A DNA stretch of 64,000 bases from Candidatus Omnitrophota bacterium (GCA_043817155.1 JBDRHE010000087.1:983-64982); one strand, 5' to 3'. Positions 12,896-52,212 are shown, counted from the first letter of the stretch. Notes: generated by a model not told the origin, from the letters alone. A program made the numbers and translations.

Positions 12896-12938
12896 TGCCT
12901 ATGTCAAAAGAGTTATCTCTCATTTTCGCACCCAACTC

Positions 12939-13027: not shown

Positions 13028-13052
13028 ATGTGTAAAAAAAAGGAAAAAAGAC

Positions 13053-26826: not shown

Positions 26827-26834
26827 TAAACACA

Positions 26835-27156
26835 GATGAACGCAGATGGGTAAGCAACGATGAACGATGGACGATTCGAAAATAGTGGAAATACGATTGA
26901 AATGCAATTGAAATACATTGATGAGCGCGGATGCATGCCTCGTCTTTGCGAGGTGCCGTAATACACTAAGCGCACCGAAGCAATCTCAGACTTCTGTCAT
27001 CCCCGCGCAAGCGGGGATCCAGAGGGAACTCGTCGAGAGTACATCCATGGATTCCCGCTTCCGCGGGAATGACAACTTTAGATTGCCTGCCTGCCAGTAT
27101 ATTTCGGGCAGGCAGGCTTCGGCACGCTCGAATATTCCGGTGCCTCGCAAAGACGA
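26835..27156. repeat. Family-A modular repeat carrying a nested Family-B REP pair and the CCTGCCTGCC...GGCAGGCAGG palindrome
   Basis: Module 1 at 26835-26939, hairpin unit 26940-26987, REP hairpins 26995-27074, palindrome 27085-27118 inside the R-arm. Confidence 0.8.
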
Positions 27157-27201
27157 AGGCTAAGATCTGTGCCAATCTGTGCATAGAAAAGGGAGGCAAT
27201 C

Positions 27202-27710: not shown

Positions 27711-27997
27711 TCGTCTTTGCGAGGTGCCGTAATATACTAAGCGCACCGAAGGTTAAAACATCTTGTCATTCCCGCGCAAGCGGGAATCCAGGCGGAAATG
27801 ACAAATACATTAGAAAGATACACTTCTGGATCCCCGCTTTCGCGGGGATGACAGAATAACGGAGATTGTGCCACCGCTACTTTCGCATGGTGGGGTCCCG
27901 CAATGCATAAGCAACGGCGGGAAAAGCGGGAATCCATGGATGTGCTCTCAATGAGCTCACTCTGGATCCCCGCTTACGCGGGGATGACATGTGGGAA
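27711..27997. repeat. Cluster: one Family-A hairpin unit (27711-27752) followed by Family-B REP hairpins (27764-27853, 27962-27997) and a related two-hairpin motif (27866-27925)
   Basis: The 27866-27925 motif is homologous to 13133-13190 with compensatory stem changes. Confidence 0.7.
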
Positions 27998-28744: not shown

Positions 28745-29036
28745 CGTTCACGCTACGATGGACGACGGACGTAGGACAATGGACGATTCGAAGATAGCGG
28801 AAATACGATTGAGATACATCGAAATGCAGTTGAAATGCAATTGAAATACATTGATGAGCGCAGACACACAACTCGTCTTTGCGAGGTGCCGTAAATAGTT
28901 GAGCGTACCGAAGCAATCTCTCCGAGCTAGTATGAGATTGCTTCGGCACACTCGAATTTTACGGTGCCTCGCAAAGACTAGGAAAGATGAGATTACTTCG
29001 ACACGTATTAAAAATGAAGGTGCCTCGCGATGGCGA
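28745..29036. repeat. Family-A modular repeat, running into the annotated 5' end of trxB
   Basis: Module 1, forward unit 28873-28920, R-arm 28934-28978, degenerate R-arm copy 28987-29036. Confidence 0.8.
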
Positions 29037-29049: not shown

Positions 29050-29952
29050 ATGTACGATTTAATAATAATTGGAGCAGGGCCTGCGGGTATAACAGCAAGC
29101 GTATATGCTGCTCGCAAAAGAATGAATTTTATTGTGATCGCCGAATTTCTCGGAGGGCAGACCGCCCTTAGCGGCGACATAGAAAATTATACGGGTTACC
29201 AGTTTATTACAGGGCCTGAACTTGCTCAGAAGTTCGAAGAGCATATAAAGAAGTACGGGATCGGTGTAAGGGAGAATGAGCGGGTTATCGAAGTTACAAA
29301 AAGAGGGGATGAGGTAAGCGTTAAGACTGAAAAAGGCGAGTATATTTCCAGGACCGCGATAATCGCTTCCGGAACAAGATGGCGGGAGCTTGGCGTTCCG
29401 GGAGAAAAGGAATATAAGAATAGGGGTGTCACATACTGCGTTACATGCGATGGGCCTCTCTTCTCCGGAAAGAACGTCGCTGTTATAGGAGGCGGCAATT
29501 CCGGCCTTGAGGCGGCTCTTCAGCTTATAAAGATCGCTAAACACGTGTATCTTATCAATATCGCACCTGACCTTACGGGAGATGCGGTATTGCAGGAGAA
29601 GGTAATGGGAAGCGATAAGGCTTCGATCTTAAATTCGACAAGTGTAACCGAAATTACCGGAGATAAGATGGCCGGCGCCATAAAGATAAATAGCCGGGGT
29701 AAAGAACGATCCATCCCGGTAGAAGGCATCTTTGTTGAGATAGGGCTCATACCCAATTCCGAATTTGTTAAAGGGATCGAAAAGAACGAGCGTAACGAGA
29801 TTAAGGTCAATTCGAAGAATGAAACGGATGTGCCGGGGATATTCGCCGCCGGAGACGTGACCGATGCGCCTGAGAAGCAGATCATAGTCGCAGCCGGCGA
29901 AGGGTCGAAAGCGGCTCTCAGCGCATTTAGATACCTGGCGCATAGGAGATGA
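29050..29952 (+). CDS. trxB: Thioredoxin-disulfide reductase
   Basis: GAGPAG FAD motif, redox CVTC, NADPH motif GGGNSG; start taken as MYDLIIIGAG rather than the repeat-encoded upstream ATG. Confidence 0.85.
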   Translation: MYDLIIIGAGPAGITASVYAARKRMNFIVIAEFLGGQTALSGDIENYTGYQFITGPELAQKFEEHIKKYGIGVRENERVIEVTKRGDEVSVKTEKGEYISRTAIIASGTRWRELGVPGEKEYKNRGVTYCVTCDGPLFSGKNVAVIGGGNSGLEAALQLIKIAKHVYLINIAPDLTGDAVLQEKVMGSDKASILNSTSVTEITGDKMAGAIKINSRGKERSIPVEGIFVEIGLIPNSEFVKGIEKNERNEIKVNSKNETDVPGIFAAGDVTDAPEKQIIVAAGEGSKAALSAFRYLAHRR

Positions 29953-30170
29953 CACGCGAATTTAATAGTAAACTTACGATGGATGATGGAAGATGGACGA
30001 AGGACGATTCGAAGATAACGGAAATACGATTGAGATACATCGAAATGCAATTGAAATACATGGATGAGCCCATATACACAACTCGTCTTTGCGAGGCACC
30101 GAAATATTCGAGCGTGCCGAAGCCTGCCTGCCCGCCCGCCAGAATTTCTTACTGGCAGGCAGGCAATCTC
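29953..30170. repeat. Family-A modular repeat with the CCTGCCTGCC palindrome inserted into the hairpin unit
   Basis: Module 1 then unit 30083-30170 carrying the palindrome at 30123-30164; a TATAAT at 30192-30197 lies downstream. Confidence 0.8.
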
Positions 30171-30231
30171 AAGCTAGCCCGGAGAGACGCGTATAATCTT
30201 GTGTCTATGTGTCCCGAGAGTACTTGAAGCT

Positions 30232-31174: not shown

Positions 31175-31804
31175 ATGCCAAATAAGAAGATATCCGAGGC
31201 GACCATCTCACGGCTGTTTATGTTATTGCGGGAGATCACGAAACTCGTAAACATGAATATCAGAACGATATCATCGTCGGAACTTGGCGATAGGTTAAAT
31301 TTAAGCGATGCTCAAGTTCGCAAAGATCTCGGATATTTCGGGCAGTTCGGTATTAGCGGATCCGGCTACGATACCTGGGAGCTCAAATCGGCTTTAGAGA
31401 AGATACTTGGCAAGGATAAGAACTGGAACGTAGTGGTTGTCGGAGCGGGTGACCTTGGATCAGCACTTTTAGCATATCCGGGATTTAAAAAGCATGGTTT
31501 GGAGATAGTCGCGGCGTTTGATATCGATGTTCGCAAAATCGGTAAACGCATAAAAGATGTGATTGTACAATCCGTGAATGATATGCCGAAGGTGATCAAG
31601 GATACGAAGGCGTCAATCGGTATCGTAACCGTTCCCGCGAAGAACGCGCAGGAAGTGGCGGATATGCTGATAAAGTCAAAGATCGAATGCATTCTTAATT
31701 TTGCACCGGTGTCGCTAGCGGTACCCGAAGATACGAAGGTAAAGGACGTAGATCTTTCAAGAGAGCTGGAGACGCTCTCTTATTTTTTGGCCAACAAGAA
31801 GTAA
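31175..31804 (+). CDS. rex: Redox-sensing transcriptional repressor Rex
   Basis: N-terminal winged helix plus Rossmann fold GAGDLGSAL. Confidence 0.9.
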   Translation: MPNKKISEATISRLFMLLREITKLVNMNIRTISSSELGDRLNLSDAQVRKDLGYFGQFGISGSGYDTWELKSALEKILGKDKNWNVVVVGAGDLGSALLAYPGFKKHGLEIVAAFDIDVRKIGKRIKDVIVQSVNDMPKVIKDTKASIGIVTVPAKNAQEVADMLIKSKIECILNFAPVSLAVPEDTKVKDVDLSRELETLSYFLANKK

Positions 31805-33645: not shown

Positions 33646-33669
33646 CGATGACCTAAAAAGGGCATACAT

Positions 33670-33738
33670 GATTACGCGGATTTTGTGAACTATTTAGCGT
33701 TTTGATTACACGGATTATAGAAAGAGATTACACGGATG
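33670..33738 (+). promoter_or_regulatory. Three direct copies of GATTACRCGGAT(G) upstream of the first gene of the mbh operon
   Basis: Copies at 33670-33681, 33704-33715, 33726-33738 (last overlaps the ATG); same motif at 45024/45044, 49853/49872/49895/49956, 50744/50764. Confidence 0.5.
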
Positions 33739-35639: not shown

Positions 35640-35646
35640 GTTGCTG

Positions 35647-36120
35647 ATGAAAAGAGAAGAGATCCTGAAAGACTTAAAAGAGAGATTCAAAGGCGATATA
35701 ATAGATGTCTTTGACAAGACTATAAAGAGGGTATATATCGAAATCTACCCGAAATCCATAAGAAGGGTTGCCACCTATGTCTTTAAGGATCTTGGCGCCA
35801 GATTCAATATTGCCTCAGGCGTAGATGTACGCGACCATATGGAGATTCTCTATCATTTTACAATCGAAGAGATAAATCTCCTGATATCCTTGAGGGTGAA
35901 GCTCGATAAGTCAAAGCTGGAGATAGACTCTATTGCTCCTATTTTTGAAGGAGCCAATTGGATAGAGAGGGAGATTCACGAAATGTTCGGAATAGACTTT
36001 AAGGGGCACCCGGATATGAGGAGACTCCTCCTACCCGACGGGTGGCCGGAAGGCGTATATCCTTTGCGGCGAGATTACAAGGAATGGGATAAGGGCGCGA
36101 TAAGGGATAGAGGGGTATAA
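35647..36120 (+). CDS. mbhK: NuoC/MbhK-like subunit
   Basis: NuoC-family fold; operon position. Confidence 0.8.
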   Translation: MKREEILKDLKERFKGDIIDVFDKTIKRVYIEIYPKSIRRVATYVFKDLGARFNIASGVDVRDHMEILYHFTIEEINLLISLRVKLDKSKLEIDSIAPIFEGANWIEREIHEMFGIDFKGHPDMRRLLLPDGWPEGVYPLRRDYKEWDKGAIRDRGV

Positions 36121-36123: not shown

Positions 36124-36252
36124 AATGTTTCTTAAGGTTACTTGAGGTTTCTTGAGGTTGCACTTCGTTTGCAAAATCCCGAAACTTTAAGAAACATTCC
36201 GAAACCTGAAGAAGCCTCAAGTAACGTTAAGCAACCTAAGGAAAGAAACATA
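36124..36252. repeat. Family-E imperfect inverted repeat (GTTTCTTAAGGTT / GAGGTTTCTTGAGGTTGCA), inside the operon upstream of mbhL
   Basis: Second copy at 43506-43612 upstream of mbhN. Confidence 0.7.
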
Positions 36253-36260
36253 TAAATAAT

Positions 36261-37442
36261 ATGGCGAAGACAATAGTTCCCATAGGTCCGTATCACCCGC
36301 TTCAGGAAGAACCGGAATTCTTTACGCTTACTGTTGAGGGTGAGAGGGTAGTAGATATAGATGTAAAGGTCGGATATAACCACAGAGGCATAGAGAAGCT
36401 GTCCGAGATGAAGACATTTGATCAGTCCACCTTTGTTATCGAGAGGATCTGCGGCATATGCTCTACGAGCCATCCCTTTGCCTATACAAGGGCGGTAGAG
36501 GACATTATTTCCGTTGAAGTACCGGAGAGAGCAAAGTTTATAAGGACTATCATCGCAGAAGGCGAAAGAATACATTCGCATCTTTTATGGGTCGGCCTTG
36601 CCGGCCATTTTCTGGGATACAACACCGTCTACATGTGGGCATGGAAGCTCCGGGAAGAGATACTGGACGTAATGGAGATACTATCCGGTAACCGCAATAA
36701 TTATGCTATGTTTAAACCCGGTGGCGTTAGAAGAGATATAAAGTCCGGGGATATACCGGGTGTCATAAAGAAGATAGATTCTATTATTCCGACATGCGTT
36801 ATGCTTAAGAAGGCCGTTATAGACGACCCTGTATTACACGCCCGGACCAAAGGTATAGGCATTCTAACCAAAGAGGAAGCTATAGATTATTGCGCCCTCG
36901 GTCCGACATCAAGGGCCTCCGGGGTAGAAAGGGATTTAAGGAAGGACTGTCCTTACGGAGCCTATGATAGAATGGAGTGGAATATGATCGTGACACAGAA
37001 CGGCGATGTATTCGATAAGGCGGTTGTGAGGATCCTGGAGACTTTTGAGTCTATCAAGATCATCAAGTATTGCCTCTTGAATCTGCCGGGTGGTGAAATC
37101 GATCTGAATATAAAGAGCATTCCTCCCGGAGAAGGCATAGGCCACATAGAGGCGCCGAGGGGCGAGACGTTCCATTATGTAAGAAGTGACGGGACAAACA
37201 GACCCGCGCGTCATAAGGTAAGGGCCCCGACATTTATGAATCTCCCGACATACAAAGCGACCGTTATAGGTGAGACAATATCGGACGCTACGATAATTCT
37301 GGCCGCCATAGATCCCTGCTATTGTTGCACAGAGAGAATAGCCGTGCGCAATACCGAGGGGAACAAGATATATAGCGGTGAGGAACTGGTGCGTCTTTCC
37401 CAAAAGAAGACCGAGGACTTGAGAAGGAAGAAGGTTTTTTAG
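36261..37442 (+). CDS. mbhL: Group-4 [NiFe] hydrogenase large subunit (NuoD/HycE/MbhL-like)
   Basis: N-terminal RICGICSTSH and C-terminal DPCYCCTER Ni-Fe ligand motifs both intact. Confidence 0.9.
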   Translation: MAKTIVPIGPYHPLQEEPEFFTLTVEGERVVDIDVKVGYNHRGIEKLSEMKTFDQSTFVIERICGICSTSHPFAYTRAVEDIISVEVPERAKFIRTIIAEGERIHSHLLWVGLAGHFLGYNTVYMWAWKLREEILDVMEILSGNRNNYAMFKPGGVRRDIKSGDIPGVIKKIDSIIPTCVMLKKAVIDDPVLHARTKGIGILTKEEAIDYCALGPTSRASGVERDLRKDCPYGAYDRMEWNMIVTQNGDVFDKAVVRILETFESIKIIKYCLLNLPGGEIDLNIKSIPPGEGIGHIEAPRGETFHYVRSDGTNRPARHKVRAPTFMNLPTYKATVIGETISDATIILAAIDPCYCCTERIAVRNTEGNKIYSGEELVRLSQKKTEDLRRKKVF

Positions 37443-37446
37443 ATTT

Positions 37447-39108
37447 ATGAATATAAGCGCGCAACTTTTCAGATTTGATAACCTGTCAATCTTTGTAGGT
37501 ATATTCATTGCCTTCTTCTCCGCGCTTACTATATTCTATTCTTTCGGATTCATGCGTAAGAGGGGCGGTCAGATCGGTTATTACCTATGTATAATTCTTA
37601 CTCTGGCAACATCGCTTGGGGCGGTCTTCTCTAACAATCTTATACTTTTTGTTGTCTTCTGGGGTTTTTTGGGATTTCTTTTATATCTTTTAATCGGGTA
37701 CGGCCAAAAAGAGAGAACGTCATATACTGCCAAGAAGGCGTTTATAATAATTGGCGGGACGGATGCTTTCATGTTGCTGGGTTTAGCATTTGTCTGGCAT
37801 ATTGCAGGATCATTCGATATGGACAAGCTGAGCATTGCTCTGGATAGCCGCCTTGCTACTTCGGCATATCTCTGCCTCGCTGTTGGCGCATTTGCCAAGG
37901 CGGGGGCAATGCCATTCCATACCTGGGTTCCGGATATGGCGGAAGACGCACCTACATCGGTTACAGCTTTCTTGCCGGCATCTTTGGACAAACTCCTAGG
38001 CATATATCTGCTTGTAAGAATTTCATTAGATATATTCGTGATGAATCAGACAATGAATACGTTTCTGCTTGCCATAGGCAGTATAACAATAGTCGCGGCT
38101 GTCATGATGGCCCTTGTGCAACATGATCTAAAGAGGCTCTTGGGGTATCATGCGGTAAGCCAGGTAGGGTACATGGTTCTTGGAATAGGCACCGGAAACC
38201 CGATAGGTATCGCAGGGGGGCTCTTCCACATGTTGAACAACGCGGTTTATAAGTCGTGCTTATTCATGTCAGGTGGGGCGATTGAAAAGAAGGCCGAGAC
38301 GACCGATCTCGGAAAGCTGGGTGGATTTGCCAGAATTATGCCCATCACCTTCGTAACCTTCTTAATTGCGTCGCTGGCGATATCAGGGGTACCGCCATTT
38401 AACGGTTTTACCTCTAAATGGATGATTTATCAGGGCATAATAGAGACAGCCAAAGGCGGAGGCCGACTCTGGGTTATATGGCTTATCGCGGCGATGTTCG
38501 GCAGCGCTCTAACGCTGGCCAGTTTTATGAAATTGATTCATACTATTTTTTTGGGACAACCGTCGAAAGAACAGAAGAGCAAAATAGAAAAAGGGGGGCG
38601 TCAGGAGACCGGGCCGACAATGTGGATACCACCCGTTATATTGGCCGCTCTGTGCGTCCTTTTTGGTGTATTTGCATTCAGAATACCGCTTAAGTTATTT
38701 ATATTACCCAGTCTGAGCATGAAGGTTCTTTTTACGGGGGTATGGAGCGCGCCGCTTGCGACAATTCTGATATTTATAGGAATAGGAGTCGGTTTTGTGG
38801 TCTACCTTTTTGGTACGGTCATTAAGACAAGATCGACCGAGCCATTTATTGGCGGCGAAATCTTGGGAGCGCATTCATCCATCCGGGTTTCCGGAACGGA
38901 ATTCTATACTTCAATACAGGATATAGGTATTTTAAGATTTATATACAATCTTGCGCAGAAGAAAGTATTTGACTTATATGAGGTTGGAACCAAGATCACA
39001 TTTGCCTTTAACAAACTTTTACGTTATCTTCATAATGGCGTGCTTTCAACGTACCTGGCATGGTGTCTTCTCGGAATGCTGATACTGTTCATTACGTTGC
39101 TTAAATAA
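37447..39108 (+). CDS. mrpA: Mrp antiporter subunit A-like (NuoL/MbhH family), N-terminal portion
   Basis: NuoL/MrpA proton-pumping antiporter fold, 553 aa. Confidence 0.8.
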   Translation: MNISAQLFRFDNLSIFVGIFIAFFSALTIFYSFGFMRKRGGQIGYYLCIILTLATSLGAVFSNNLILFVVFWGFLGFLLYLLIGYGQKERTSYTAKKAFIIIGGTDAFMLLGLAFVWHIAGSFDMDKLSIALDSRLATSAYLCLAVGAFAKAGAMPFHTWVPDMAEDAPTSVTAFLPASLDKLLGIYLLVRISLDIFVMNQTMNTFLLAIGSITIVAAVMMALVQHDLKRLLGYHAVSQVGYMVLGIGTGNPIGIAGGLFHMLNNAVYKSCLFMSGGAIEKKAETTDLGKLGGFARIMPITFVTFLIASLAISGVPPFNGFTSKWMIYQGIIETAKGGGRLWVIWLIAAMFGSALTLASFMKLIHTIFLGQPSKEQKSKIEKGGRQETGPTMWIPPVILAALCVLFGVFAFRIPLKLFILPSLSMKVLFTGVWSAPLATILIFIGIGVGFVVYLFGTVIKTRSTEPFIGGEILGAHSSIRVSGTEFYTSIQDIGILRFIYNLAQKKVFDLYEVGTKITFAFNKLLRYLHNGVLSTYLAWCLLGMLILFITLLK

Positions 39109-39109
39109 G

Positions 39110-39658
39110 ATGGTTGAACTATACATATTATTAATTCTGATGATCATGGGCGCGATAATCGCCGTTGAGGTTAAGGACATGCTCTCTTCGGTTGTAGCGG
39201 TAGGAGCGGTGGGCCTCATTCTCTCAATAGCCTTTTTGATACTAAAAGCACCCGATGTTGCTATTACCCAGCTCGTTGTTGAGATATTGGCCCTCATTAT
39301 CTTAATCAGGGCAACACTTAAGAAGGATCTGCCTTTTTCAACATCCGGAAGATGGGTACTAAATACCGTAATTACTTTTGCGTTCATAGGCGTGCTGCTA
39401 CTTGTCGCGCGCAAATGTTTCGCTGACTTGCCGGAATTTGGCTATCCTATAATGAGAGTGGCGGATACCTATATAAAGGACGGGCTCTTGAAGACAGGCG
39501 CAACCAACGTTGTGTCATCCGTTATACTGGATTTCAGGGCTTTCGATACACTTGGTGAGGCGACGGTCCTGTTTACAGCAGTTATAGGTGTATTGGCTAT
39601 TGTCAGGCGTACCGGAAGAAAGACGGAAGGTCAGAAGATAGAGGAAGAGGAAGAATAA
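39110..39658 (+). CDS. MrpA C-terminal / MnhB-domain protein (DUF4040-like)
   Basis: VILDFRAFDTLGE motif typical of the MrpA C-terminal/MnhB domain. Confidence 0.7.
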   Translation: MVELYILLILMIMGAIIAVEVKDMLSSVVAVGAVGLILSIAFLILKAPDVAITQLVVEILALIILIRATLKKDLPFSTSGRWVLNTVITFAFIGVLLLVARKCFADLPEFGYPIMRVADTYIKDGLLKTGATNVVSSVILDFRAFDTLGEATVLFTAVIGVLAIVRRTGRKTEGQKIEEEEE

Positions 39659-39930
39659 TGAGCCCCGTTAGACCTCTATATTTTACATATGTTTTAGAAA
39701 GTGAGAAGACAGGTGAATTCTATACTGGTGCTACATCCGATTTAAAGAAAAGAATAGTGAAACATAATAAAGGTTTGGTTGCTTCTACAAAATGTAGAGT
39801 TCCATTATATTTAGTATATTTTGAAGCATGCTTTAACAAAGAAGATGCTTTTCGCAGAGAAAAATATCTGAAATCTGGAATGGGTAAACGATATATCAAA
39901 AATCGATTAAGAGGAGATCTAACGGGGTGA
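39658..39930 (+). CDS. GIY-YIG nuclease-superfamily protein (YhbQ/UPF0213-like) inserted inside the mrp module
   Basis: LYFTYVLESEKTGEFYTGATSDLKKRIVKH matches the GIY-YIG core; markedly AT-rich; 1-nt and 4-nt overlaps with flanking genes. Confidence 0.7.
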   Translation: MSPVRPLYFTYVLESEKTGEFYTGATSDLKKRIVKHNKGLVASTKCRVPLYLVYFEACFNKEDAFRREKYLKSGMGKRYIKNRLRGDLTG

Positions 39931-40379
39931 GCAGAGAACACGAAAAGGGAATGTCTCTTATCGTTAAGACCGTTACGAGGCTTACAGTGGGTCTCATTAT
40001 ATTGTATGGTGTATACATTGTTCTTCACGGCCACGTTTCACCGGGTGGGGGTTTTGCAGGCGGCGTCATAATAGCCCTCTCCATTGTTCATCTTATGCTT
40101 GCTTATGGCAAAGACGTTGCTCTGGCGAAGCTTTCACGGGGCGCTGCACACTTCTTTGAGAGCACAGGTGCGCTCCTTTTCCTGGTTATAGCGATACTCG
40201 GATTCACCGGCGGGTACTTCTTTCTCAATTTTATATCTAAGGGAGAGCCCTTCCACCTCTTTAGCGCCGGCATAATTCCTCTTTGCAATATAGCCATAAG
40301 CATGAAGGTTGGAGCCGGGCTCTTTGCGATCTTCATTGCGCTCGTTCTCTTAGATCTGGAATCCGGGAGAAAGTCATGA
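39927..40379 (+). CDS. mrpB: Mrp antiporter subunit B
   Basis: HGHVSPGGGFAGGVI motif. Confidence 0.8.
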   Translation: MSREHEKGMSLIVKTVTRLTVGLIILYGVYIVLHGHVSPGGGFAGGVIIALSIVHLMLAYGKDVALAKLSRGAAHFFESTGALLFLVIAILGFTGGYFFLNFISKGEPFHLFSAGIIPLCNIAISMKVGAGLFAIFIALVLLDLESGRKS

Positions 40380-40714
40380 CTTTATATTTACTCTGTTTAA
40401 CGCTCTTCTCGATAGGCATATATTGCGTATTAAGAAAACGAAACATTATAAAAATAATTGTAGGGATCATCATATCCGAGTATGCGGTCAATCTTTTCTT
40501 TATTTTAGTGGCATATCGCATAAATGGGCGGGCGCCGATATTATCCCCAGATGTAAATATAACGAACATGGTCGATCCCTTGCCACAGGCTCTGGTTTTA
40601 ACCTCCATCGTCATAGGGCTTGCGACGACAGCATTACTTATAGCAATTGCAATGCGAATTTATGAGAAATACGGTACTTTCGATATAACAAAGATAAAGG
40701 AGCTGAGAGGTTAA
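40376..40714 (+). CDS. mrpC: Mrp antiporter subunit C (NuoK-like)
   Basis: 113 aa with three TM helices; ATG overlaps the upstream stop. Confidence 0.8.
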   Translation: MTLYLLCLTLFSIGIYCVLRKRNIIKIIVGIIISEYAVNLFFILVAYRINGRAPILSPDVNITNMVDPLPQALVLTSIVIGLATTALLIAIAMRIYEKYGTFDITKIKELRG

Positions 40715-42216
40715 TGCAGGGCGCGAATATTTTACCACTCTTCATAATAATACCGCTTGCCGGCGCATTTCTTAACTCACTTATCGGGAAGAGAATAAAG
40801 TGGGTGCCGGACCTTTTGGGTAACGTAGCAACACTGGGCCTCTTCATTGTTTCGCTTCTGGCCGTTTGCCTGGTTAATGCGCAGGGCGTGTTGTCATATA
40901 GCGTCGGGGCATGGAAGATGCCGCTCGGTATAGCGATGGTCCTGGACGGTTTCACCGTATTCATGCTGGTTACGGTCAATCTCGTAGCATTTGCCATCTC
41001 GGTCTATTCGATAAATTACATGGAGAAGTATACCTCTAAATGGAAATTCTACACACTATTTTTATTGATGCTCGCGGGCATGAATGGAGTCGTTATAACG
41101 GGCGATATGTTCAATCTGTTTGTGTTCCTGGAGATAGCATCCGTTGCCAGTTACGCCCTGGTTGCTTTCGGAACGGAGCGCCACGAATTGGAAGCCGCGT
41201 TCAAGTATGCAGTAATGAGCAGCATAGGGTCGCTCTTTGTTCTTCTGGGAATCGTCTTCTTATACAGCCTTACATCGACACTTAATATGGCGGACATGTC
41301 AAACGTCCTGGCCCAAAAGGGAGCAAACAATATTACACTTATGGTCAGCGTTCTGTTCATAATGGGATTCGGTCTGAAAGCGGCTTTAGTTCCTTTTCAC
41401 GCATGGCTTCCGGACGCCCACCCGTCGGCACCCGCTCCGATATCCGCGATGTTGTCCGGAGTCCTCATTAAATCACTTGGTATCTACGCACTATGCAGAA
41501 TATTCTATAATGTTATAGGGATAACCCCGGCCATATCATCGGTACTGATGTTCTTAGGTACGCTCTCTATGGTCGTGGGGGTGTTCCTGGCTATAGGGCA
41601 ATGGGATCTGAAGCGGCTTTTGGCCTATCATTCGATAAGTCAGATAGGCTACGTTATTCTTGGTGTGGGGCTTGGGACACCGCTGGGCATACTTGGAGGA
41701 CTCTTCCATCTATTCAATCATTCCGTCTTCAAATCACTCTTATTTTTGAATTCCGGAGCCATCGATTACGCAACGGGCAACCGTGACTTACAGAAGATGG
41801 GTGGCTTGATGGGAAAGATGCCGGTTACAGGCTGTACAGGCTTAATAGCGTCTATGTCGATAGCCGGTGTGCCGCCCTTCAACGGCTTTTGGAGCAAGCT
41901 TATAATCATTTTAGCAGCTGTCCAGGCGGGCCGATTCGGGTATGCATTCTGGGCGGTACTCGCAAGCTTGCTTACCCTTGCATCGTTTACCAAGGTCATG
42001 AAGTACGCATTTTTCGGGAACCTCAAATCCAGGTGGACGAAGGTCAAAGAGGTGCCAATCGCAATGAAGTTATCGATGGTGTCACTGGCAATAATCTGCG
42101 TTTTAGGAGGAGTTCTTATTATCTCCTCTGTGAGTGACGTCTTCTTAAAGAGCGCAAGCGATGTGATTTCGTCCGGAACCGACTATGCGCGTTTAGTCTT
42201 TAAAAGTATACGGTAA
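40714..42216 (+). CDS. mrpD: Mrp antiporter subunit D (NuoM/N-like)
   Basis: NuoM/MrpD family, 500 aa. Confidence 0.85.
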   Translation: MQGANILPLFIIIPLAGAFLNSLIGKRIKWVPDLLGNVATLGLFIVSLLAVCLVNAQGVLSYSVGAWKMPLGIAMVLDGFTVFMLVTVNLVAFAISVYSINYMEKYTSKWKFYTLFLLMLAGMNGVVITGDMFNLFVFLEIASVASYALVAFGTERHELEAAFKYAVMSSIGSLFVLLGIVFLYSLTSTLNMADMSNVLAQKGANNITLMVSVLFIMGFGLKAALVPFHAWLPDAHPSAPAPISAMLSGVLIKSLGIYALCRIFYNVIGITPAISSVLMFLGTLSMVVGVFLAIGQWDLKRLLAYHSISQIGYVILGVGLGTPLGILGGLFHLFNHSVFKSLLFLNSGAIDYATGNRDLQKMGGLMGKMPVTGCTGLIASMSIAGVPPFNGFWSKLIIILAAVQAGRFGYAFWAVLASLLTLASFTKVMKYAFFGNLKSRWTKVKEVPIAMKLSMVSLAIICVLGGVLIISSVSDVFLKSASDVISSGTDYARLVFKSIR

Positions 42217-42217
42217 T

Positions 42218-42715
42218 ATGAAGAAGAGAATAGTTCTATTCATAACGGCTTTTATTGTATGGTGCCTATTGAATTGGGTGCCTGACATGCAACACATCTT
42301 AGTTGGTATCTTCGTATCTCTTTTTGTTGCGTATATGACAGGCGACCTCTTTGTGCAGAGACCCCATATCCTGACGCACCCCATGAGGTACCTCTATTTT
42401 ATCTTCCAATATTTACCGGTATTTCTATGGGAGATCATAAAGGCGAATATAGATGTCGCATATCGGGTTGTGCATCCCGGATTACCTATAAATCCGGGGA
42501 TCGTAAAGGTAAAGACGACCCTTAAATCTGATATTGCGCTGACATTTTTGTCTAACTCAATTACGCTTACTCCGGGAACGCTGACCGTAGACATCGATAA
42601 GGATAACGCTGTTCTCTATGTACACTGGATCGATGTCAAGGCCAAAGATGTCAATACCGCGACTAAGATAATAGTAGAACGGTTTGAAAGGATCTTGAGA
42701 AAGATTTTTGATTAG
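42218..42715 (+). CDS. mrpE: Mrp antiporter subunit E
   Basis: MnhE family. Confidence 0.8.
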   Translation: MKKRIVLFITAFIVWCLLNWVPDMQHILVGIFVSLFVAYMTGDLFVQRPHILTHPMRYLYFIFQYLPVFLWEIIKANIDVAYRVVHPGLPINPGIVKVKTTLKSDIALTFLSNSITLTPGTLTVDIDKDNAVLYVHWIDVKAKDVNTATKIIVERFERILRKIFD

Positions 42716-42772
42716 AAAAATAGGTGAGATGAACCCCGTTAGAACTCTATCGGGGTGAAGAAAGTTGCGAAG

Positions 42773-43177
42773 ATGAATAATTCTAATGGGCTTGGCAAAA
42801 CCGACGGGGTGAAGGTTGTTAAGTGGCTGGTAGGGGCGGTCGTTTTAACGGGCATAGCAACTCTCATCGTATTGCGTCCCTTCCCATGCCTTATCTGTCC
42901 CGGTTTTGCGTATTCGGGATTCTTCAGCCGCGCACTCTATATAGTCATCTTAGCATCTGCGCTATGTCTCTACCGCGTGTGGAAAGGACCGACCGGAGCC
43001 GACAGGATAGTGGCTGTAGACATACTTGGAATCATGATAATAGGATTGTGCGCGGTACTTACGGTTTGTACGGGCAGGTCCTGGTATATCGATATCGGAA
43101 TTGCGTGGGCCCTGCAAAGCTTTATAAGCACGTTAGCGCTTTCCAAATATCTAGAAGGCAGAGGATTTGATGAATGA
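42773..43177 (+). CDS. mrpF: Mrp antiporter subunit F
   Basis: MnhF-like TM helices; start uncertain (GTG at 42755 or ATG at 42773). Confidence 0.65.
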   Translation: MNNSNGLGKTDGVKVVKWLVGAVVLTGIATLIVLRPFPCLICPGFAYSGFFSRALYIVILASALCLYRVWKGPTGADRIVAVDILGIMIIGLCAVLTVCTGRSWYIDIGIAWALQSFISTLALSKYLEGRGFDE

Positions 43178-43505
43178 TATTATTGGGTTGGTATTTATTG
43201 GCATTGGGCTGGCATTCGATGTTTTCGGGTGTCTGGGTCTTGTAAGGCTTCCAGATGTGTATAATCGTCTGCAAGCTGCGACAAAGTGCGTGACACTCGG
43301 CACCTGCAGCATTCTATTCGGAACGTTTCTCATAGTTGGACTTACGGCTGCAGGAGTAAAATCGCTACTTTGCATAGTGTTTCTCATATTGACCTCTCCT
43401 GTTGCGGCACATGCGATAGCCAGGGGCGCCCACAGGGCGGGTGTCAAGCTCTGTGACGAAAGCGTGATAGATAAATATAAAGAAGATAAAGAAGGGGAAG
43501 CATAA
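43170..43505 (+). CDS. mrpG: Mrp antiporter subunit G
   Basis: MnhG family (LVRLPDVYNRLQAATK). Confidence 0.8.
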   Translation: MNDIIGLVFIGIGLAFDVFGCLGLVRLPDVYNRLQAATKCVTLGTCSILFGTFLIVGLTAAGVKSLLCIVFLILTSPVAAHAIARGAHRAGVKLCDESVIDKYKEDKEGEA

Positions 43506-43612
43506 GAGGTTTCTTAAGGTTTCGGAATGTTACTTAAGGTTTCTTGAGGTTGCAACAACTTAAATGCAACATAAAGAAACTTCCCGGAACCTAAAGAAAC
43601 ATTAAGAAACAT
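43506..43612. repeat. Family-E imperfect inverted repeat, second copy
   Basis: GAGGTTTCTTAAGGTTTCGGAATGTTACTTAAGGTTTCTTGAGGTTGCA ... GAAACATTAAGAAACAT. Confidence 0.7.
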
Positions 43613-43621: not shown

Positions 43622-44233
43622 ATGAGATTACCAAAGATAAGGGAAGTTATCGAGGCGGTAAAAGCGCTTATCAAGGGCCCATATACATCGAAGTTCCCTG
43701 CGGAACCTCACGTTCCACATCCCAATTTCAGGGGTCAACCCAAGTTTAACGATAAGAGGTGTGTAGGGTGCCTGGCGTGCGAAGAGGTTTGCCCGGTAAA
43801 CGCCATAGATCATAAGGACCGGATGGATGATAAGCCGGACGCGAAGCGTATCATGATCCATTACACCGATACGTGCATTTTCTGCGGTCAATGTGAGGCC
43901 GCATGTATAGCCGATCATGAGGGCATCAAGCTTTCGAACGACTGGGAGCTCTCATTCTTCGACAGAAAAGAGGCCCAGGAGTCTATCGAAAAGAAGCTGG
44001 AGCTTTGTGAAATTTGCGGCTCGGTAATTGCCTGCAAAGACCATTTAAAGTGGATCTCTCTTAAATTGGGCGAACTTACATATTCAAGTCCTACCTTGTA
44101 CCTCTCCCGCCTTAAGAGCCTCGGAATTATAGATAATAACATCATATCCGCATTGAAAGATAACGGTCGCTCTGACAGGGTGAAGATCTTGTGTGCCCGT
44201 TGCAGAAGAGAGACTACTCTTACCACGAAATAG
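43622..44233 (+). CDS. mbhN: NuoI/HycF/MbhN-like 2x[4Fe-4S] subunit
   Basis: CVGCLACEEVCP and CIFCGQCEAAC motifs. Confidence 0.8.
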   Translation: MRLPKIREVIEAVKALIKGPYTSKFPAEPHVPHPNFRGQPKFNDKRCVGCLACEEVCPVNAIDHKDRMDDKPDAKRIMIHYTDTCIFCGQCEAACIADHEGIKLSNDWELSFFDRKEAQESIEKKLELCEICGSVIACKDHLKWISLKLGELTYSSPTLYLSRLKSLGIIDNNIISALKDNGRSDRVKILCARCRRETTLTTK

Positions 44234-44323
44234 CCTTAAGCTTTAAGCCATAAGCCTTAAATGTATCTTCTCTAACGAGCGCAGATGATGAGACTTACGG
44301 CTTATAGCTTATAGCTTACAGCT
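44234..44323. repeat. Family-F ATAAGCT/AGCTTAT-rich inverted repeat directly after a stop codon
   Basis: AAGCCATAAGCC...GGCTTATAGCTTATAGCTT; copies at 46503-46577 and 52117-52212. Confidence 0.7.
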
Positions 44324-44325
44324 AT

Positions 44326-44817: not shown

Positions 44818-45025
44818 AGGAATTTCCGAACACGCGAGGAAAGAGGGCGCCAAGAGCGTATCCAGGGTGAGGCTTAAGATAGGGGAATTTACGGGTATCA
44901 AAGAAGAGTCATTCCGGGAGACTTTTAGAGTATTGGCTAAAGGTACAGTATTGGAAGGAACTAAACTCGAACTTTCGTATTTTTTAGCTTCACGGATCGA
45001 GGTAGTGTCTTTCGATATAGAGTGA
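44783..45025 (+). CDS. hypA: HypA-like Ni metallochaperone, N-terminal domain only (no zinc finger)
   Basis: MHE Ni-binding N-terminus and core alignable to E. coli HypA; lacks the C-terminal CxxC...CxxC. Confidence 0.65.
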   Translation: MHETHLIEPIIKGISEHARKEGAKSVSRVRLKIGEFTGIKEESFRETFRVLAKGTVLEGTKLELSYFLASRIEVVSFDIE

Positions 45026-45041
45026 TTACACAGATTAGGGA

Positions 45042-46139
45042 GTGATTACACAGATGAGCAAGGGTTCGAACATACTGGCTCTCGGGGCCGATATGAAGAG
45101 CAGGTATCTGGTCGCAAGCGGCAGCAAGCTCGAGTTCGGTCCGGAGATAGGGGATCTCGGCGAGGCCAGGAACTTCGCATTCTTCAAGAGGAAAGTACAA
45201 CAGGTCGTCAAAAGGACAAAGCCGGCTATTATAACGCATGACCTGCATCCCGGTTATTTTTCCACCCGATTGGCCAGGAGAATAGGCGCCGAACATCCTG
45301 CTGCCAGTCTACTGCCGGTCCAACACCACTATGCTCACATAGCAAGCGTGATGGCCGAATTTGGATTAAAAGGACCCGCTATAGGGGTTGCGCTTGACGG
45401 AACAGGTTTGGGTACTGACGGAAATATATGGGGTGGCGAATTTATTGTGGTGAGAAACCGGAACTTCAACCGTGTGGGGCATTTCAAATATATCAGGATG
45501 CCGGGCGGGGAGAAGGTTATAAGCGAGATCTGGAGAATGGTTATTAGCATACTGGGCAGAGTCGGGTGTCCGTTCCTAAAAGATGTTGAGGAGATAGCGA
45601 AAGAGATGCTCATATCCATGATGGAGAAGGGTATCAATTCGCCGTTAACCTCAAGTGTCGGCAGGATCTTCGACGCTGCCGCGTCGCTTACAGGCGTCTG
45701 TCGGGAAGCCGCATATGAAGCGGAAGGACCGATAAAGCTCGAGAAACTATGTGATTACAAGATCAAGGAAAGTTATAATTTCACGATATCAAAAAATAAG
45801 GGCACATTTACAATCGATGTAAGGCCAATTTTTTTTGAATTGATTAAAGATCTCAAGAAAAGAACGAAGAGATCGGTTATTGCTACGAAATTCCACAATT
45901 CAATGGTTATGGCGGTCTTTAAAATGGTAAAGAAGATAACGGAAGAAACCGGGATAAAGGATGTTCTGCTCTCGGGAGGGGTGTTCCAGAACAGTTTTTT
46001 GAGAAGGAGGCTCATGGAGAAGTTGTCCAAAGCCGGGTTCAAGGTTTTTATAAATGAAAAGACGCCGGTAAATGACCATAATATAGCACTTGGGCAGTAT
46101 TATATCGCGAAGAATTATCCACAAACGAACAGTAAGTAG
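45042..46139 (+). CDS. hypF: HypF-like carbamoyltransferase, Kae1-like C-terminal domain only
   Basis: PVQHHYAHIASV and VALDGTGLGTDGNIWGGEF match the HypF C-terminal domain; no acylphosphatase, Zn-finger or YrdC domains; begins MITQM at a GATTACACAGATG motif. Confidence 0.75.
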   Translation: MITQMSKGSNILALGADMKSRYLVASGSKLEFGPEIGDLGEARNFAFFKRKVQQVVKRTKPAIITHDLHPGYFSTRLARRIGAEHPAASLLPVQHHYAHIASVMAEFGLKGPAIGVALDGTGLGTDGNIWGGEFIVVRNRNFNRVGHFKYIRMPGGEKVISEIWRMVISILGRVGCPFLKDVEEIAKEMLISMMEKGINSPLTSSVGRIFDAAASLTGVCREAAYEAEGPIKLEKLCDYKIKESYNFTISKNKGTFTIDVRPIFFELIKDLKKRTKRSVIATKFHNSMVMAVFKMVKKITEETGIKDVLLSGGVFQNSFLRRRLMEKLSKAGFKVFINEKTPVNDHNIALGQYYIAKNYPQTNSK

Positions 46140-46200
46140 CGAGTAGCAAGTAGAGAGTAGAGAGAGCTTCTCGCTACTTGCTACTCTCTACTCGCCACTT
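46131..46200. repeat. Family-D AGTAG/CTACT hairpin element, second copy, overlapping the hypF stop
   Basis: Approximately 95% identical to 15160-15232. Confidence 0.7.
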
Positions 46201-46234
46201 AAAAAAATTTGTGTCTAATAGAACTAGGTAAAGT

Positions 46235-46513
46235 ATGTGTTTAGCCACACCCGCGAAGATAAAGAAAATAGAGGAGACCGTCGATAGCGGGAAGACCGCC
46301 ATTGTTGATTTCGGTGGCGTTCAAAGAAGGATCTCTCTTGGTATCCTGAATAATGCTAAAATAGGCGACTACGTTCTTGTGCACGCCGGTTTTGCGATAG
46401 GCAAGGTTAGTAAGCTTGAAGCAGAGAATACAAAAAGGGCGTTAGAGGAGCTGCGGAGAACATACGAAGGGGCGCAAATGTATGTTGAAGATATAGATAT
46501 CCATAAGCTATAA
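46235..46513 (+). CDS. hypC: Hydrogenase maturation factor HypC
   Basis: MCLATP N-terminus (Cys2). Confidence 0.9.
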   Translation: MCLATPAKIKKIEETVDSGKTAIVDFGGVQRRISLGILNNAKIGDYVLVHAGFAIGKVSKLEAENTKRALEELRRTYEGAQMYVEDIDIHKL

Positions 46514-46577
46514 GCCGTAAGCTATAAGCTTAGACCGTTTTGAGCTTATAGCTTAAAACTTAAGGCTTAAAGCTTTG
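46503..46577. repeat. Family-F inverted repeat overlapping the hypC stop
   Basis: ATAAGCTATAAGCCGTAAGCTATAAGCTT...GAGCTTATAGCTT. Confidence 0.7.
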
Positions 46578-46597
46578 GTCAATTTAAGGAAATTGTT

Positions 46598-47608: not shown

Positions 47609-47896
47609 CACGGAACGCATGACACGTGAATTTAATAGTAAACTTACGATGGACGAAAGACGATGGACGGCTTTTGACTCGTCTTTGCGAGGTGCCGCAA
47701 TAGACTGAGCGCACCGAAGCAATCTCGCTAAGTCTGTCTTTGCGAAGTGCCTTAATATACTAAGCGCACTGAAGCAATCAAACTAGCTCGATGAGATTGC
47801 TTCGGCACGCTCGAATATTCCGGTGCCTCGCAAAGACGAGGAAAGCTTGAGATTGCTTCGGCACGCTCGAATATTCCGGTGCCTCGCAAAGACGAG
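47609..47896. repeat. Family-A modular repeat with the R-arm tandemly duplicated
   Basis: Forward units 47679-47726 and 47733-47779; R-arm copies 47791-47839 and 47848-47896 are 100% identical; a degenerate third start supplies the track's ATG at 47902. Confidence 0.85.
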
Positions 47897-47934
47897 AAAA
47901 GATGAGATTGATTTGGCACAAGAAAGTGAAGGGA

Positions 47935-49835: not shown

Positions 49836-49852
49836 TAACTTCTATTGACAGA

Positions 49853-49997
49853 GATTACACAGATTAAGGAGGATTACACAGATGGTTGCCTCGTATCTGT
49901 GTAATCAAAACGTTGCATACTTCACAGAATCAAGTTTTATCAATCTGAATAAAAAATCTGTGTAATCATTGAGAAAATATGTTATTTAGTATATAAT
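49853..49997 (+). promoter_or_regulatory. GATTACACAGAT motif cluster (two direct, two inverted) plus TTGAGA-N17-TATAAT promoter for nadE
   Basis: Motifs at 49853-64, 49872-83, 49895-906 (RC), 49956-67 (RC); -35 at 49969-74 and -10 at 49992-97. Confidence 0.5.
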
Positions 49998-50761: not shown

Positions 50762-52132
50762 ATGATTACACAGATGAAAAGAGATTCGAGTAGATGTATC
50801 CGCGATATCGAGGAGATGTTCGAGCTCTCTCCAGGCGAAATTCGGCGGATAGTAAAGGATTTCCATTCGGAGATGCGAAGAGGTCTTTCGGGACGGGGAA
50901 GCTCGCTCAAGATGATACCCTCTTACGCCGGAAGACCAAGCGGTACCGAGAAGGGCAGGTTTCTTGCTCTTGATCTCGGTGGAACGAATTTCAGGCTTCA
51001 GTTGATAAGGTTGGAAGGTAATAGACGGATACGGTCTTGCATGTCAGAGAGTTATGTTTTGAAGAAGAGACTTTTGAGAGGCACAGGCAAGAAGTTTTTC
51101 GATTTCATAGCCGGCCGCGTAGAAAAATTCATTGATAAAAATGGAAAGGCCGGAGATGAAGACTGTAAAATAGGATTTACCTTCTCATTCCCTGTTAAGC
51201 AGACCAGGGTAGACAACGGTATCCTGATCAGGTGGACAAAAGGGTTCCAGATAAGTGGTGTAGAGGGTAAGGACGTGGTCAAATTGCTTAATGAATCTCT
51301 GAAAGGTAGAGGATTGGGATATGTAAGTGTCGTCGCTCTTGCAAATGATACGGTAAGTACGGTCGCTGCTAAAAGCTATGAAGATAAGAACTGCGACATC
51401 GGCGTAATCTTGGGGACCGGTACGAACGCCTGTTATTGCGAAAAGCGCTCCAATGTATTAAAGGTAAGAAAAGAGGCGATCTTGCCCAGAGGCGTCTTTA
51501 TAAATATGGAGTGGGGCAACTTTAGTAAAATAAGATCTACGGCATATGACAGGGAGTTGGACGCATCATCGGTCAATCCCGGAGAACAGTTACTCGAAAA
51601 GATGGTGTCAGGCAGATATCTTGGAGAGATCGCAAGATTAGTTTTAAGAGATTTAAAAAGAAGGAGAGCGATTTTCATAAATAGACCCATCTCCATATTG
51701 GACATGCCGTATCGATTCAAATCAGAATATATGTCGATGGCCGAGAGCGATAATTCTAAAATGATGACGCGAACAGATAGATTGCTAAAGAAGCTGGGCA
51801 TAAATAAATCATCTGCTGCCGACAGGAGGCTTCTCAAGAGAGTGTGCATGGCGATCTCTAAGAGAGCTGCATGTATCAGCGCAGCGGCCATATTTTCGGT
51901 GGTTACCAAAATAGATAGCCGCGTGTCCAGGCGACATACGATAGCTGTAGATGGTTCTGTTTATGAAAAGTATTGCGGATTCCCGAAGAAGATGAGAGAT
52001 GCGCTTAAAGAGAATTTCAGACTGATAGATCAAAACAGAGGCGTTTCCAGAGTAAGGCTGAGCCTCACTAAGAATGCGTCCGGCAAGGGCGCCGCTGTTA
52101 TAGCGGCGATGAGTAGAGCTTTAGCTTCCTAG
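50762..52132 (+). CDS. Hexokinase-family sugar kinase (eukaryote-type)
   Basis: LDLGGTNFRL signature and two-domain actin-fold kinase; begins MITQM at a GATTACACAGATG motif. Confidence 0.75.
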   Translation: MITQMKRDSSRCIRDIEEMFELSPGEIRRIVKDFHSEMRRGLSGRGSSLKMIPSYAGRPSGTEKGRFLALDLGGTNFRLQLIRLEGNRRIRSCMSESYVLKKRLLRGTGKKFFDFIAGRVEKFIDKNGKAGDEDCKIGFTFSFPVKQTRVDNGILIRWTKGFQISGVEGKDVVKLLNESLKGRGLGYVSVVALANDTVSTVAAKSYEDKNCDIGVILGTGTNACYCEKRSNVLKVRKEAILPRGVFINMEWGNFSKIRSTAYDRELDASSVNPGEQLLEKMVSGRYLGEIARLVLRDLKRRRAIFINRPISILDMPYRFKSEYMSMAESDNSKMMTRTDRLLKKLGINKSSAADRRLLKRVCMAISKRAACISAAAIFSVVTKIDSRVSRRHTIAVDGSVYEKYCGFPKKMRDALKENFRLIDQNRGVSRVRLSLTKNASGKGAAVIAAMSRALAS

Positions 52133-52212
52133 CTTATTAGCTTCTTAGGAGATGTGAGAACTTGTTCGTACCTAAAAAGCTAGAAAGCTAATAAGCTAGA
52201 AAGCTAGAATAA
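52117..52212. repeat. Family-F inverted repeat overlapping the hexokinase stop
   Basis: AGCTTCCTAGCTTATTAGCTT...AAGCTAATAAGCTAGAAAGCTAG. Confidence 0.7.

Follow-up and report, generated by a model that had tools for sequence, protein, structure and literature searches.

Coxiella burnetii's intervening sequence (IVS) is a 428-nt selfish element that carries an open reading frame (ORF) for the S23p protein, is closed by a 28-bp terminal stem, and is cut out by RNase III (PMC4990558). The number of tandem heptamers at its 5' end differs from strain to strain, and the IVSs of Salmonella, Leptospira and alphaproteobacteria are likewise cut by RNase III; in 2016, the origin, mobility and purpose of rRNA IVSs and of the S23p (PF05635) protein were described as unclear (PMC4990558). 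Avd, which diversity-generating retroelements have as their accessory protein, is a relative of PF05635 (PMC10053308). Here, we describe two elements, E1 and E2, that lie between protein genes in the [NiFe] hydrogenase (mbh) operon of a Candidatus Omnitrophota bacterium, within a stretch of 64,000 nt (GCA_043817155.1 JBDRHE010000087.1:983-64982; hereafter, the window). The phylum is borne out by MbhL, the best homologues of which are 85-92% identical, each one with a named source coming from Omnitrophota. We think it likely that E1 and E2 belong, as gene-less copies, to a hairpin family that is dispersed through Omnitrophota and neighbouring phyla and is probably selfish, that they are insertions in the operon, and that such effects as they have there are a by-product.

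Family E, as it is called here, resembles the 23S rRNA IVSs in several respects. Terminal inverted repeats form a long stem, a PF05635 ORF occupies the loop of the full-length form, and the 5' arm contains short tandem repeats (heptamers in Coxiella, 10-mers here). In both groups, elements occur sporadically, in a host transcript and in sense orientation, and gene-less versions exist. Unlike the IVSs, the copies described here lie between the protein genes of operons rather than in helix 25 or 45 of 23S rRNA, both of their arms are composed wholly of 10-nt units, and several of the metagenome-assembled genomes (MAGs) sampled hold gene-carrying as well as gene-less copies. Excision by RNase III is known for the IVSs; for family E, we propose it by analogy.

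Two other groups of repeats are comparable. Short tandemly repeated repetitive (STRR) sequences form hairpins between hupS and hupL in cyanobacteria, and transcript stability or translational coupling has been proposed for them (PMC2670836). They, too, have arms made of short tandem units and occupy intercistronic spacers of a hydrogenase operon, but their units are usually 7 bp rather than 10, they belong to heterocystous cyanobacteria, no associated gene has been described, and there is no sequence similarity to E1 and E2. The Correia elements of Neisseria are inverted repeats of ~100-150 bp beside or between genes, and their transcripts form hairpins that are bound or cut by RNase III, altering the expression of neighbouring genes (PMC2649163). 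In contrast to family E, they have no tandem-unit arms and no known gene-carrying form, and their sequence is unrelated; they can also create promoters and bind IHF, neither of which is evident in E1 and E2.

Sequence and fold of E1 and E2

The first-pass annotation had reported two inverted-repeat elements of one family at these positions (Table 1), and their coordinates, units and arms are borne out by our analysis. The consensus unit in the arms of both elements is GGTTNCTTRA (10 nt). Three to five such units stand in tandem in each 5' arm and recur, inverted, in the 3' arm, and Tandem Repeats Finder detects a period of 10 in every arm. In E1, the 5' arm of tandem units (36127-36159) is followed by a central part (36160-36202) and the 3' arm (36203-36235). 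These arms, of 33 nt each, are 88% complementary by inverted-repeat search, and there is an outer pairing of ATGTTTCTT (36125-36133) with AAGAAACAT (36243-36251). In E2, the arms (43509-43554 and 43565-43610) are 46 nt long and 74% complementary, and the loop is 10 nt. The 17-mer GGTTTCTTGAGGTTGCA is identical in the two elements (36146-36162 in E1, 43538-43554 in E2), and 83 of the 140 columns of their alignment are identical. With up to two mismatches, the pattern GGTTTCTTRAGGTT matches 11 times in the window, always within E1 or E2; 0.75 matches are expected, and none of 100 shuffles reached 11.

RNA folding, which the same annotation had put forward as a check, gives long imperfect hairpins for both. 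On the + strand, E1 folds with -45.0 kcal/mol (z = -6.1) and E2 with -35.2 kcal/mol (z = -5.6), and none of 200 shuffles was as good; the complementary strand folds slightly more weakly (-41.1 and -30.4 kcal/mol). Neither element contains an ORF. Rfam has no match at the gathering threshold anywhere in the window, E1 and E2 included. A permissive scan returned only sub-threshold scores, of 16-29 bits for miRNA-precursor models (79-140 needed) and 19.5 bits for Phe_leader (55 needed), and the miRNA-precursor matches signify a generic long hairpin.

Insertion at stop/start junctions

We compared the operon with the closest orthologues available (loci L001/L002, L003/L004 and L005, 89-92% identity in MbhL) and with 80 further orthologous loci from metagenomes. 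In all of the closest operons, mbhK and mbhL overlap by one base (TAATG; …GGAGTGTAATGGC…), and the median spacer between them across the 80 further loci is -1. The distance from mnhG to mbhN is 40 nt in L001/L002, 5 in L003/L004 and -4 in L005. An nhmmer search with the family-E profile found zero copies in the 85 orthologous mbh loci. Because the flanking genes overlap or nearly abut in these closest Omnitrophota operons, we regard E1 and E2 as lineage-specific insertions at ancestral stop/start junctions, not as conserved elements of the operon.

The junctions themselves retain traces of the earlier arrangement. The 3' end of mbhK contains AGAGGGG (36109-36115), which is mbhL's ancestral Shine-Dalgarno sequence; relatives have GAGGAGTGTAATGGC at this junction. 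The mbhK stop codon (TAA, 36118-36120) lies 4-6 nt ahead of the E1 stem, and mbhL now starts 140 nt beyond it, without a good Shine-Dalgarno sequence in the 15 nt upstream. Likewise, GAAGGGGAAG (43491-43500), just before the mnhG stop codon (TAA, 43503-43505), is the ancestral Shine-Dalgarno sequence of mbhN, and an AU-rich leader of 10-20 nt separates the E2 stem from that gene. Each insertion thus parts an old Shine-Dalgarno sequence from its start codon. Overall, the stems begin 3-6 nt past a stop codon and end 9-25 nt ahead of an ATG, with no good Shine-Dalgarno sequence in the AU-rich gap. At E2's junction in a close relative (L001, 16871-16910), the 40-nt spacer holds a bare tandem array of 8-mers, TTCGGTTTG CCGGTTAG CCGGTTTAGG, with no inverted arm; a tandem-unit element may be starting to form here, or may have left this array behind.

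Insertions of comparable kind are widespread in the relatives. The mbhK–mbhL (K–L) spacer is at least 55 nt in 9 of the 80, and each of these holds a different hairpin, mostly with tandem-unit arms (e.g. CAGCTNT units in L119, CGAATGN in L177, CGTTANNT in L192, and a fold of -53.8 kcal/mol in L184/L185). Naming other junctions in the same way, the counts are 7/50 at X2–M, 11/59 at M–J, 7/73 at J–K, 5/50 at H–DE, 5/31 at G–N and 6/24 at N–I; no insertion was seen in these relatives at DE–B, C–D or I–A, and a single small one (32 nt) at F–G. We considered whether K–L and G–N are uniquely targeted and rejected this, insertions being present at most junctions; throughout the clade, hairpins have colonised the junctions between cistrons. 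The other large inserts in relatives are ordinary genes (an ORF of ~205 amino acids (aa) at L–H, and a tetratricopeptide repeat (TPR) protein) or GIY-YIG genes, and none of the large inserts examined is a PF05635 gene. The ORF between mbhL and mbhH (MrpD-like), of 201-206 aa, is conserved in L119 (9180-9774), L124, L126, L177, L183-L186, L190 and L192. It is missing from the window, where the spacer is 4 nt.

A dispersed family and its gene-carrying form

The exact 19-nt pattern CTTRAGGTTNCTTRAGGTT was scanned over one genome per species (185,579 species, 596 Gb), yielding 113 stretches, 26 of them from Omnitrophota: 16 loci in RBG_13_46_9, five in RS_11_35, three in DeMMO3_19 and two in others. 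The nhmmer profile adds further family-E copies within the RBG_13_46_9 loci. These copy counts refer to related genomes, the source organism being covered by the 64-kb window. Each of the 31 sites lies between genes. Where the flanking genes are co-directional, nine gene-less copies are sense to them and 12 antisense, showing no bias in orientation, and the next gene starts 2 to 745 nt away. In RBG_13_46_9 and DeMMO3_19, the hairpin-form copies match E1 in the order of units, the loop and the 3' arm (z from -4.2 to -8.7). When nine hairpin-form copies are aligned, the core is conserved in sequence and both sides have changed in only one of 18 pairs, an alignment that fits recent copying. Some arrays, in RS_11_35 loci, are direct-only and lack an inverted arm. 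At times, the 5' module in RBG_13_46_9 precedes a direct array of another 10-mer, amid other repeat modules, in a mosaic reminiscent of bacterial interspersed mosaic elements (BIMEs).

An all-versus-all comparison of ORFs in 27 sequences (the 26 Omnitrophota loci and the window) revealed no recurrent transposase beside the copies. The sole recurrent neighbour is a PF05635 ORF. In L095 (DeMMO3_19) and L046 (RBG_13_46_9), the family-E arms enclose an ORF of 142-149 aa in place of the short loop. The two proteins are 63% identical and match PF05635, the 23S rRNA-intervening sequence protein, with 58 and 66 bits (E 1e-15 and 5e-18; cut-off 33.8), as well as TIGR02436 (four helix bundle protein). 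A third gene, in L052, lies between the same arms and encodes a protein 89% identical to that of L095. The family-E arm sequence itself encloses a gene in four loci, L046, L052, L095 (nhmmer arm matches, E 2e-7 to 3e-11) and L206; in six more (L199, L200, L202, L204, L208 and L209), genes of the same subfamily are bounded by arms of variant-sequence 10-nt GGTTNC units. Altogether, inverted tandem arms of 10-nt GGTTNC units surround a PF05635 gene of 135-150 aa in 10 loci, and in all 10 the gene is co-oriented with the upstream host gene.

A database search returned 476 relatives of this subfamily at E <=1e-5, the named ones being mostly from Omnitrophota. Most carrier contigs are only ~1 kb, and the cassettes probably break metagenome assemblies. 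We inspected seven members on long contigs (L199, L200, L202, L204, L206, L208 and L209), and their architecture is the same. They lie between co-directional housekeeping genes (e.g. murB–ftsA, epsH–epsI and lepB–pgsA-like), with three to five tandem 10-nt GGTTNC units upstream, the 5' arm of L200 being rudimentary, and the ORF extends at its 3' end into the inverted units. The last upstream unit (GAGGTTAC or GAGGTTGC) is 5-9 nt ahead of the ATG, a position in which it can act as the Shine-Dalgarno sequence of the cassette gene. No reverse transcriptase gene adjoins the cassettes inspected.

Gene-carrying and gene-less copies occur together: RBG_13_46_9, DeMMO3_19 and RS_11_35 each hold a cassette gene plus gene-less arrays or hairpins. 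Within RBG_13_46_9, the arms of L046 are common to the gene-less L022, L025, L041, L078 and L091; within DeMMO3_19, those of L095 are common to L102 and L112, which have no gene. In these two genomes, that is to say, the gene-less copies have terminal inverted repeats in common with a longer, gene-carrying element of the same genome, as miniature inverted-repeat transposable elements (MITEs) do. The 5' arms of E1 and E2 come first on the coding strand, which is the sense orientation of the full cassette, and we read both as the gene-less form of the PF05635 cassette.

Outside Omnitrophota, a PF05635 ORF lies between hairpins of CTTAAGG units in an Alistipes MAG (L086). Hairpins of GGTTNCTTAAGG-type 10-nt units, which contain the palindrome CTTAAG, occur at 5820-7400 of this locus, where several surround the PF05635 gene, and at 7089-7198 of L064, from a Planctomycetales MAG.

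Proposed mechanism and alternatives

In the full element, the 5' arm is made of three to five GGTTNCNNRA units (10 nt each, in tandem), and a PF05635 gene of 135-150 aa and an inverted 3' arm follow; it sits between co-directional host genes and would be read from the host transcript. Its distribution suggests that it has spread, by whatever route, and in this lineage two gene-less copies were inserted exactly at mbhK–mbhL and mnhG–mbhN. Because all genes of the operon are co-directional and tightly packed, E1 and E2 are presumably co-transcribed as part of the mbh polycistron, in which they would fold into imperfect stems of 30-45 bp. RNase III would then cut these stems, as it does in rRNA intervening sequences, splitting the mRNA into mbhK and upstream, mbhL to mnhG, and mbhN and downstream, and the three pieces could differ in stability. 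Translation of mbhL and mbhN would begin from the remaining AU-rich leader, or by re-initiation across the base of the stem. An effect on hydrogenase expression, if any, would be a by-product and not a conserved control circuit.

The first-pass annotation had named as candidates internal promoters, RNA processing or stability elements, or regulator sites that decouple the hydrogenase module from the antiporter module. Dedicated cis-regulation of the operon, by an internal promoter, a regulator-binding array or an attenuator tuning mbhL and mbhN, would suit the position of each element directly upstream of a catalytic-module gene and the 10-bp period, which would align repeated motifs along a single side of the DNA helix. 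In the relatives, too, K–L and G–N hold unrelated hairpins, and tandem-unit hairpins occur in the hupS–hupL spacers of cyanobacteria (PMC2670836). We nevertheless consider it quite unlikely. No sigma-70-like (-35/-10) site and no intrinsic-terminator-like site was found within either element, and absence from operons with 89-92% identity in MbhL, as from all 85 mbh loci, speaks against a conserved regulator site. Comparable insertions occur at many other junctions (X2–M, M–J, J–K, H–DE and N–I), and a gene for a Rex-like regulator heads the cluster. Elsewhere, copies are found in either orientation and among unrelated genes, at widely varying distances from the next gene start; many copies scattered without relation to gene starts were what the annotation had itself named as refuting its view, and in the related genomes this is what we find. 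Decoupling of the two modules misfits E1, which sits inside the catalytic module and splits mbhK from mbhL instead of marking the border with the antiporter genes. Nor do E1 and E2 occupy the only sizeable spacers, as the cluster has five others, of 84-95 nt. RNA processing or stability does survive, as a probable side-effect of a selfish insertion; the notion of a dedicated control device does not. A related idea, that the hairpin is kept for translational coupling, its fold bringing the stop codon and the old Shine-Dalgarno sequence beside the downstream start so that ribosomes re-initiate across the stem base, draws on the parting of both ancestral Shine-Dalgarno sequences from their starts, on stems that run from just past the stop to shortly before the ATG, and on the lack of a proximal Shine-Dalgarno sequence in eight of 10 independent K–L hairpins of relatives. 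We regard it as unlikely, since this geometry results trivially when a pure hairpin is inserted where two genes overlap, an effective spacing of 18-36 nt is a long one, and the AU-rich unstructured leader could support initiation by itself.

Two further explanations concern origin. The hairpins might have arisen in place, by replication slippage that produced the tandem units and fold-back template switching that added the inverted arm, and be immobile. Direct-only arrays in RS_11_35, the bare 8-mers of L001 at G–N, and the identical architecture of many unrelated unit sequences are all in keeping with this. Yet independent slippage would not yield the unit order, loop and 3'-arm sequence of E1 again in other genomes and loci, and the same arms bound a conserved gene, so that such an origin seems to us distinctly improbable. 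Repetitive extragenic palindromic (REP) sequences, and the BIMEs and REPINs (REP doublets forming hairpins) that they compose, are likewise extragenic, palindromic, multi-copy, co-transcribed with genes, and mosaic with other motifs (PMC2817692, PMC3733652). Family E shares the first three of these properties, presumably also the fourth, and is a mosaic with other modules in RBG_13_46_9, and the window also holds CGTC-headed REP-like palindromes. But REPs are 20-40 bp, GC-rich and headed by GTAG/CGTC (PMC3733652, PMC2817692), whereas E1 and E2, at 107-129 bp, are three to four times longer, AT-rich and headless, with arms of tandem 10-nt units. REPs are associated with a gene for a REP-associated tyrosine transposase (RAYT). 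No RAYT was found: Pfam gives no transposase, Y1 or other, for ~64 ORFs of the window, and no transposase-like ORF recurs next to the copies in the 27 sequences; the gene associated with family E is instead that of the PF05635 four-helix bundle. Mobilisation of E1 and E2 as classical REPs, BIMEs or REPINs by a RAYT is, on these grounds, highly improbable.

Several points weigh against the explanation that we prefer, insertion of gene-less selfish elements. RNase III cutting of E1 and E2 is proposed purely by analogy with the IVSs, and mobility is read solely from the distribution of copies. Possible target-site duplications amount to an ambiguous, AT-rich ATAA(A) flanking both sides; no known transposase is found in the element family, the enclosed PF05635 gene not being one. 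The window contains no family-E copy beyond E1 and E2, and no PF05635 gene among its ~64 ORFs by Pfam. Covariation in the nine aligned hairpins provides no evidence of selection on RNA structure. The profile E-values are inflated by the low complexity of the tandem arms, and estimates of copy density are biased, the loci having been chosen by the pattern scan itself. Finally, the recurrence of different hairpins at K–L in nine relatives could hint at some advantage there.

A broader idea, which we offer tentatively and hold to be possible but doubtful, is that IVS-type cassettes form a general class of operon-dwelling selfish elements. Their arms would fold in the host mRNA and make the insertion non-polar, through excision by RNase III or through a stem bridging stop to start; the PF05635 protein would recognise the units and mediate spread or maintenance; rRNA IVSs would be the special case that resides in rRNA, and E1 and E2 gene-less riders.

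The hydrogenase cluster and other repeats of the window

The cluster begins with the Rex-like regulator, a Fer4 protein, an FNR-like protein, a second Fer4 protein, MbhM/NuoH, MbhJ/NuoB and MbhK/NuoC, which is followed by E1. Then come MbhL/NuoD, an MrpD-like protein, MbhD/E, a GIY-YIG ORF, MnhB, MnhC, MnhD, MnhE, MnhF and MnhG; after E2, the order is MbhN, HycI, HypA, HypF-C, HypC and HypD. The other spacers of appreciable size are at 33646-33735 (90 nt), 42716-42808 (93 nt), 44234-44325 (92 nt), 46140-46234 (95 nt) and 46514-46597 (84 nt). Hairpins of other tandem units, the 7-mers TAAGCYW, AGTAGNG and ATAAGCT, occupy three of the five.

Table 1. Positions of E1, E2 and associated genes in the window
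Feature	Position	Strand	Match
Rex-like regulator gene, head of cluster	31175-31804		
mbhK (NuoC / 30-kDa-like)	35641-36120	+	Pfam PF00329, E 3e-31
E1, gene-less hairpin element	36124-36252	+	nhmmer family-E profile, 36124-36217, E 2e-23
mbhL ([NiFe] large subunit, NuoD-like)	36261-37442	+	Pfam PF00346, PF00374
mnhG (Mrp antiporter subunit G)	43167-43505	+	Pfam PF03334
E2, gene-less hairpin, same family as E1	43506-43612	+	nhmmer family-E profile, E 2e-22
mbhN (2x[4Fe-4S], NuoI-like), downstream of E2	43622-44233	+	Pfam Fer4 families

The GIY-YIG ORF (39658-39930, +; 90 aa; PF01541, E 1e-13) fits exactly between mbhD/E and mnhB, overlapping both neighbours (TAATG on its 5' side, GTGA on its 3' side) and bracketed by 10-nt inverted repeats, CCCCGTTAGA and TCTAACGGGG. 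It is absent from 46 of 46 orthologous operons, whose DE–B distances, one alignment artefact excepted, run from -28 to +10 nt. It resembles a mobile mini-gene by which translational coupling is preserved on either side. A mini-ORF in the mnhE–mnhF spacer (42729-42758, +; ATGAACCCCGTTAGAACTCTATCGGGGTGA, encoding MNPVRTLSG and a stop) shares its 5' end and its 3' end with the GIY-YIG gene and seems to be a copy of that gene with an internal deletion; the GTGA of the mini-ORF supplies the GTG from which a long MnhF is called. A hairpin without an ORF that is akin to it, CCCCGTTAGAGAAC-TAC-GTTCTCTAACGG, occurs in loci L013 and L103 of RS_11_35. Among the orthologous operons, the mbhJ–mbhK spacers of L180 (3645-4006) and L182 (7157-7518) hold a 79-aa GIY-YIG-like ORF (…YYGYTDNLERRLKEH…) flanked by inverted GACCCAGCACTAATTTTA and TAAAATTAGTGCTGGGTTC. 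We also asked whether the GIY-YIG mini-gene is linked to family E and set the idea aside, there being no evidence for a link beyond co-occurrence in repeat-rich spacers.

The window's intergenic DNA, and apparently that of the genome, is largely a mosaic of repeat modules. Five tandem-unit hairpins of other families, at 15162-15232, 44234-44325, 46135-46199, 46503-46575 and 52121-52209, all lie between co-directional genes; their units are 7-mers of AGTAGNG (twice), TAAGCYW and ATAAGCT, and 8-mers of TTAGCTTC. Nested REP-like palindromes (CTCGTCTTTGCGAGGTGCCG…, inner GAGCGCACCGAAGCAATCTC…; CGTC near the 5' end) are found at 1-60, 23640-23786, 26930-27160, 28870-28981 and 47678-47896. Composites of these are very stable, reaching -164 kcal/mol per spacer, and one forms a 56-nt tandem array (47790-47919). 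Two more palindromic families, TGTCATTCCCGCG.AAGCGGGAATCCAGAG… and the long hairpins GCATTCAAGCCCCGRGCTT…, account for 7990-8110, 12930-13030, 26990-27090, 27760-27988, 2655-2871 and 9589-9660.

Ahead of the REP-like clusters are direct arrays of 11-mers (GAAATACAATT) and 7-mers (ACGATGG), at 23569-23617, 26829-26921, 28755-28847, 29976-30061 and 47646-47669. Reverse complements of these modules adjoin family-E copies in RBG_13_46_9. A 92-aa 'ORF' (29949-30227) that overlaps the arrays has no Pfam match and is probably not a gene. The motif GATTACACAGATT stands just upstream of the starts of a Fer4 gene, hypF and a nadE-like gene (33700-33735, 45020-45041 and 49848-49990), forming a long inverted repeat at the last of these. 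Two giant adjacent ORFs on the + strand, 53947-58596 (1549 aa) and 58645-61704 (1019 aa), have no Pfam match at E <=1e-5.

Significance

IVSs themselves are already known. What is new here is that IVS-like cassettes live in operons and have gene-less derivatives. Several Omnitrophota MAGs, one Edwardsbacteria MAG and one Alistipes MAG carry members of the PF05635 family in hairpin cassettes between ordinary genes, and in Omnitrophota MAGs the family-E form also has gene-less derivatives. For annotation, there is a warning in this: a conspicuous hairpin inside an Omnitrophota operon is usually an insertion peculiar to one lineage rather than a conserved regulatory site. For the hydrogenase, the analogy with IVSs predicts that the mbh transcript would be cut into three pieces. 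More generally, the cassettes (476 members, with filled and empty sites) are a large natural sample in which to follow how such elements move and how they avoid operon polarity, and their significance would be the greater if the cassette biology suggested above, non-polar insertion and a role for the PF05635 protein, proves true.

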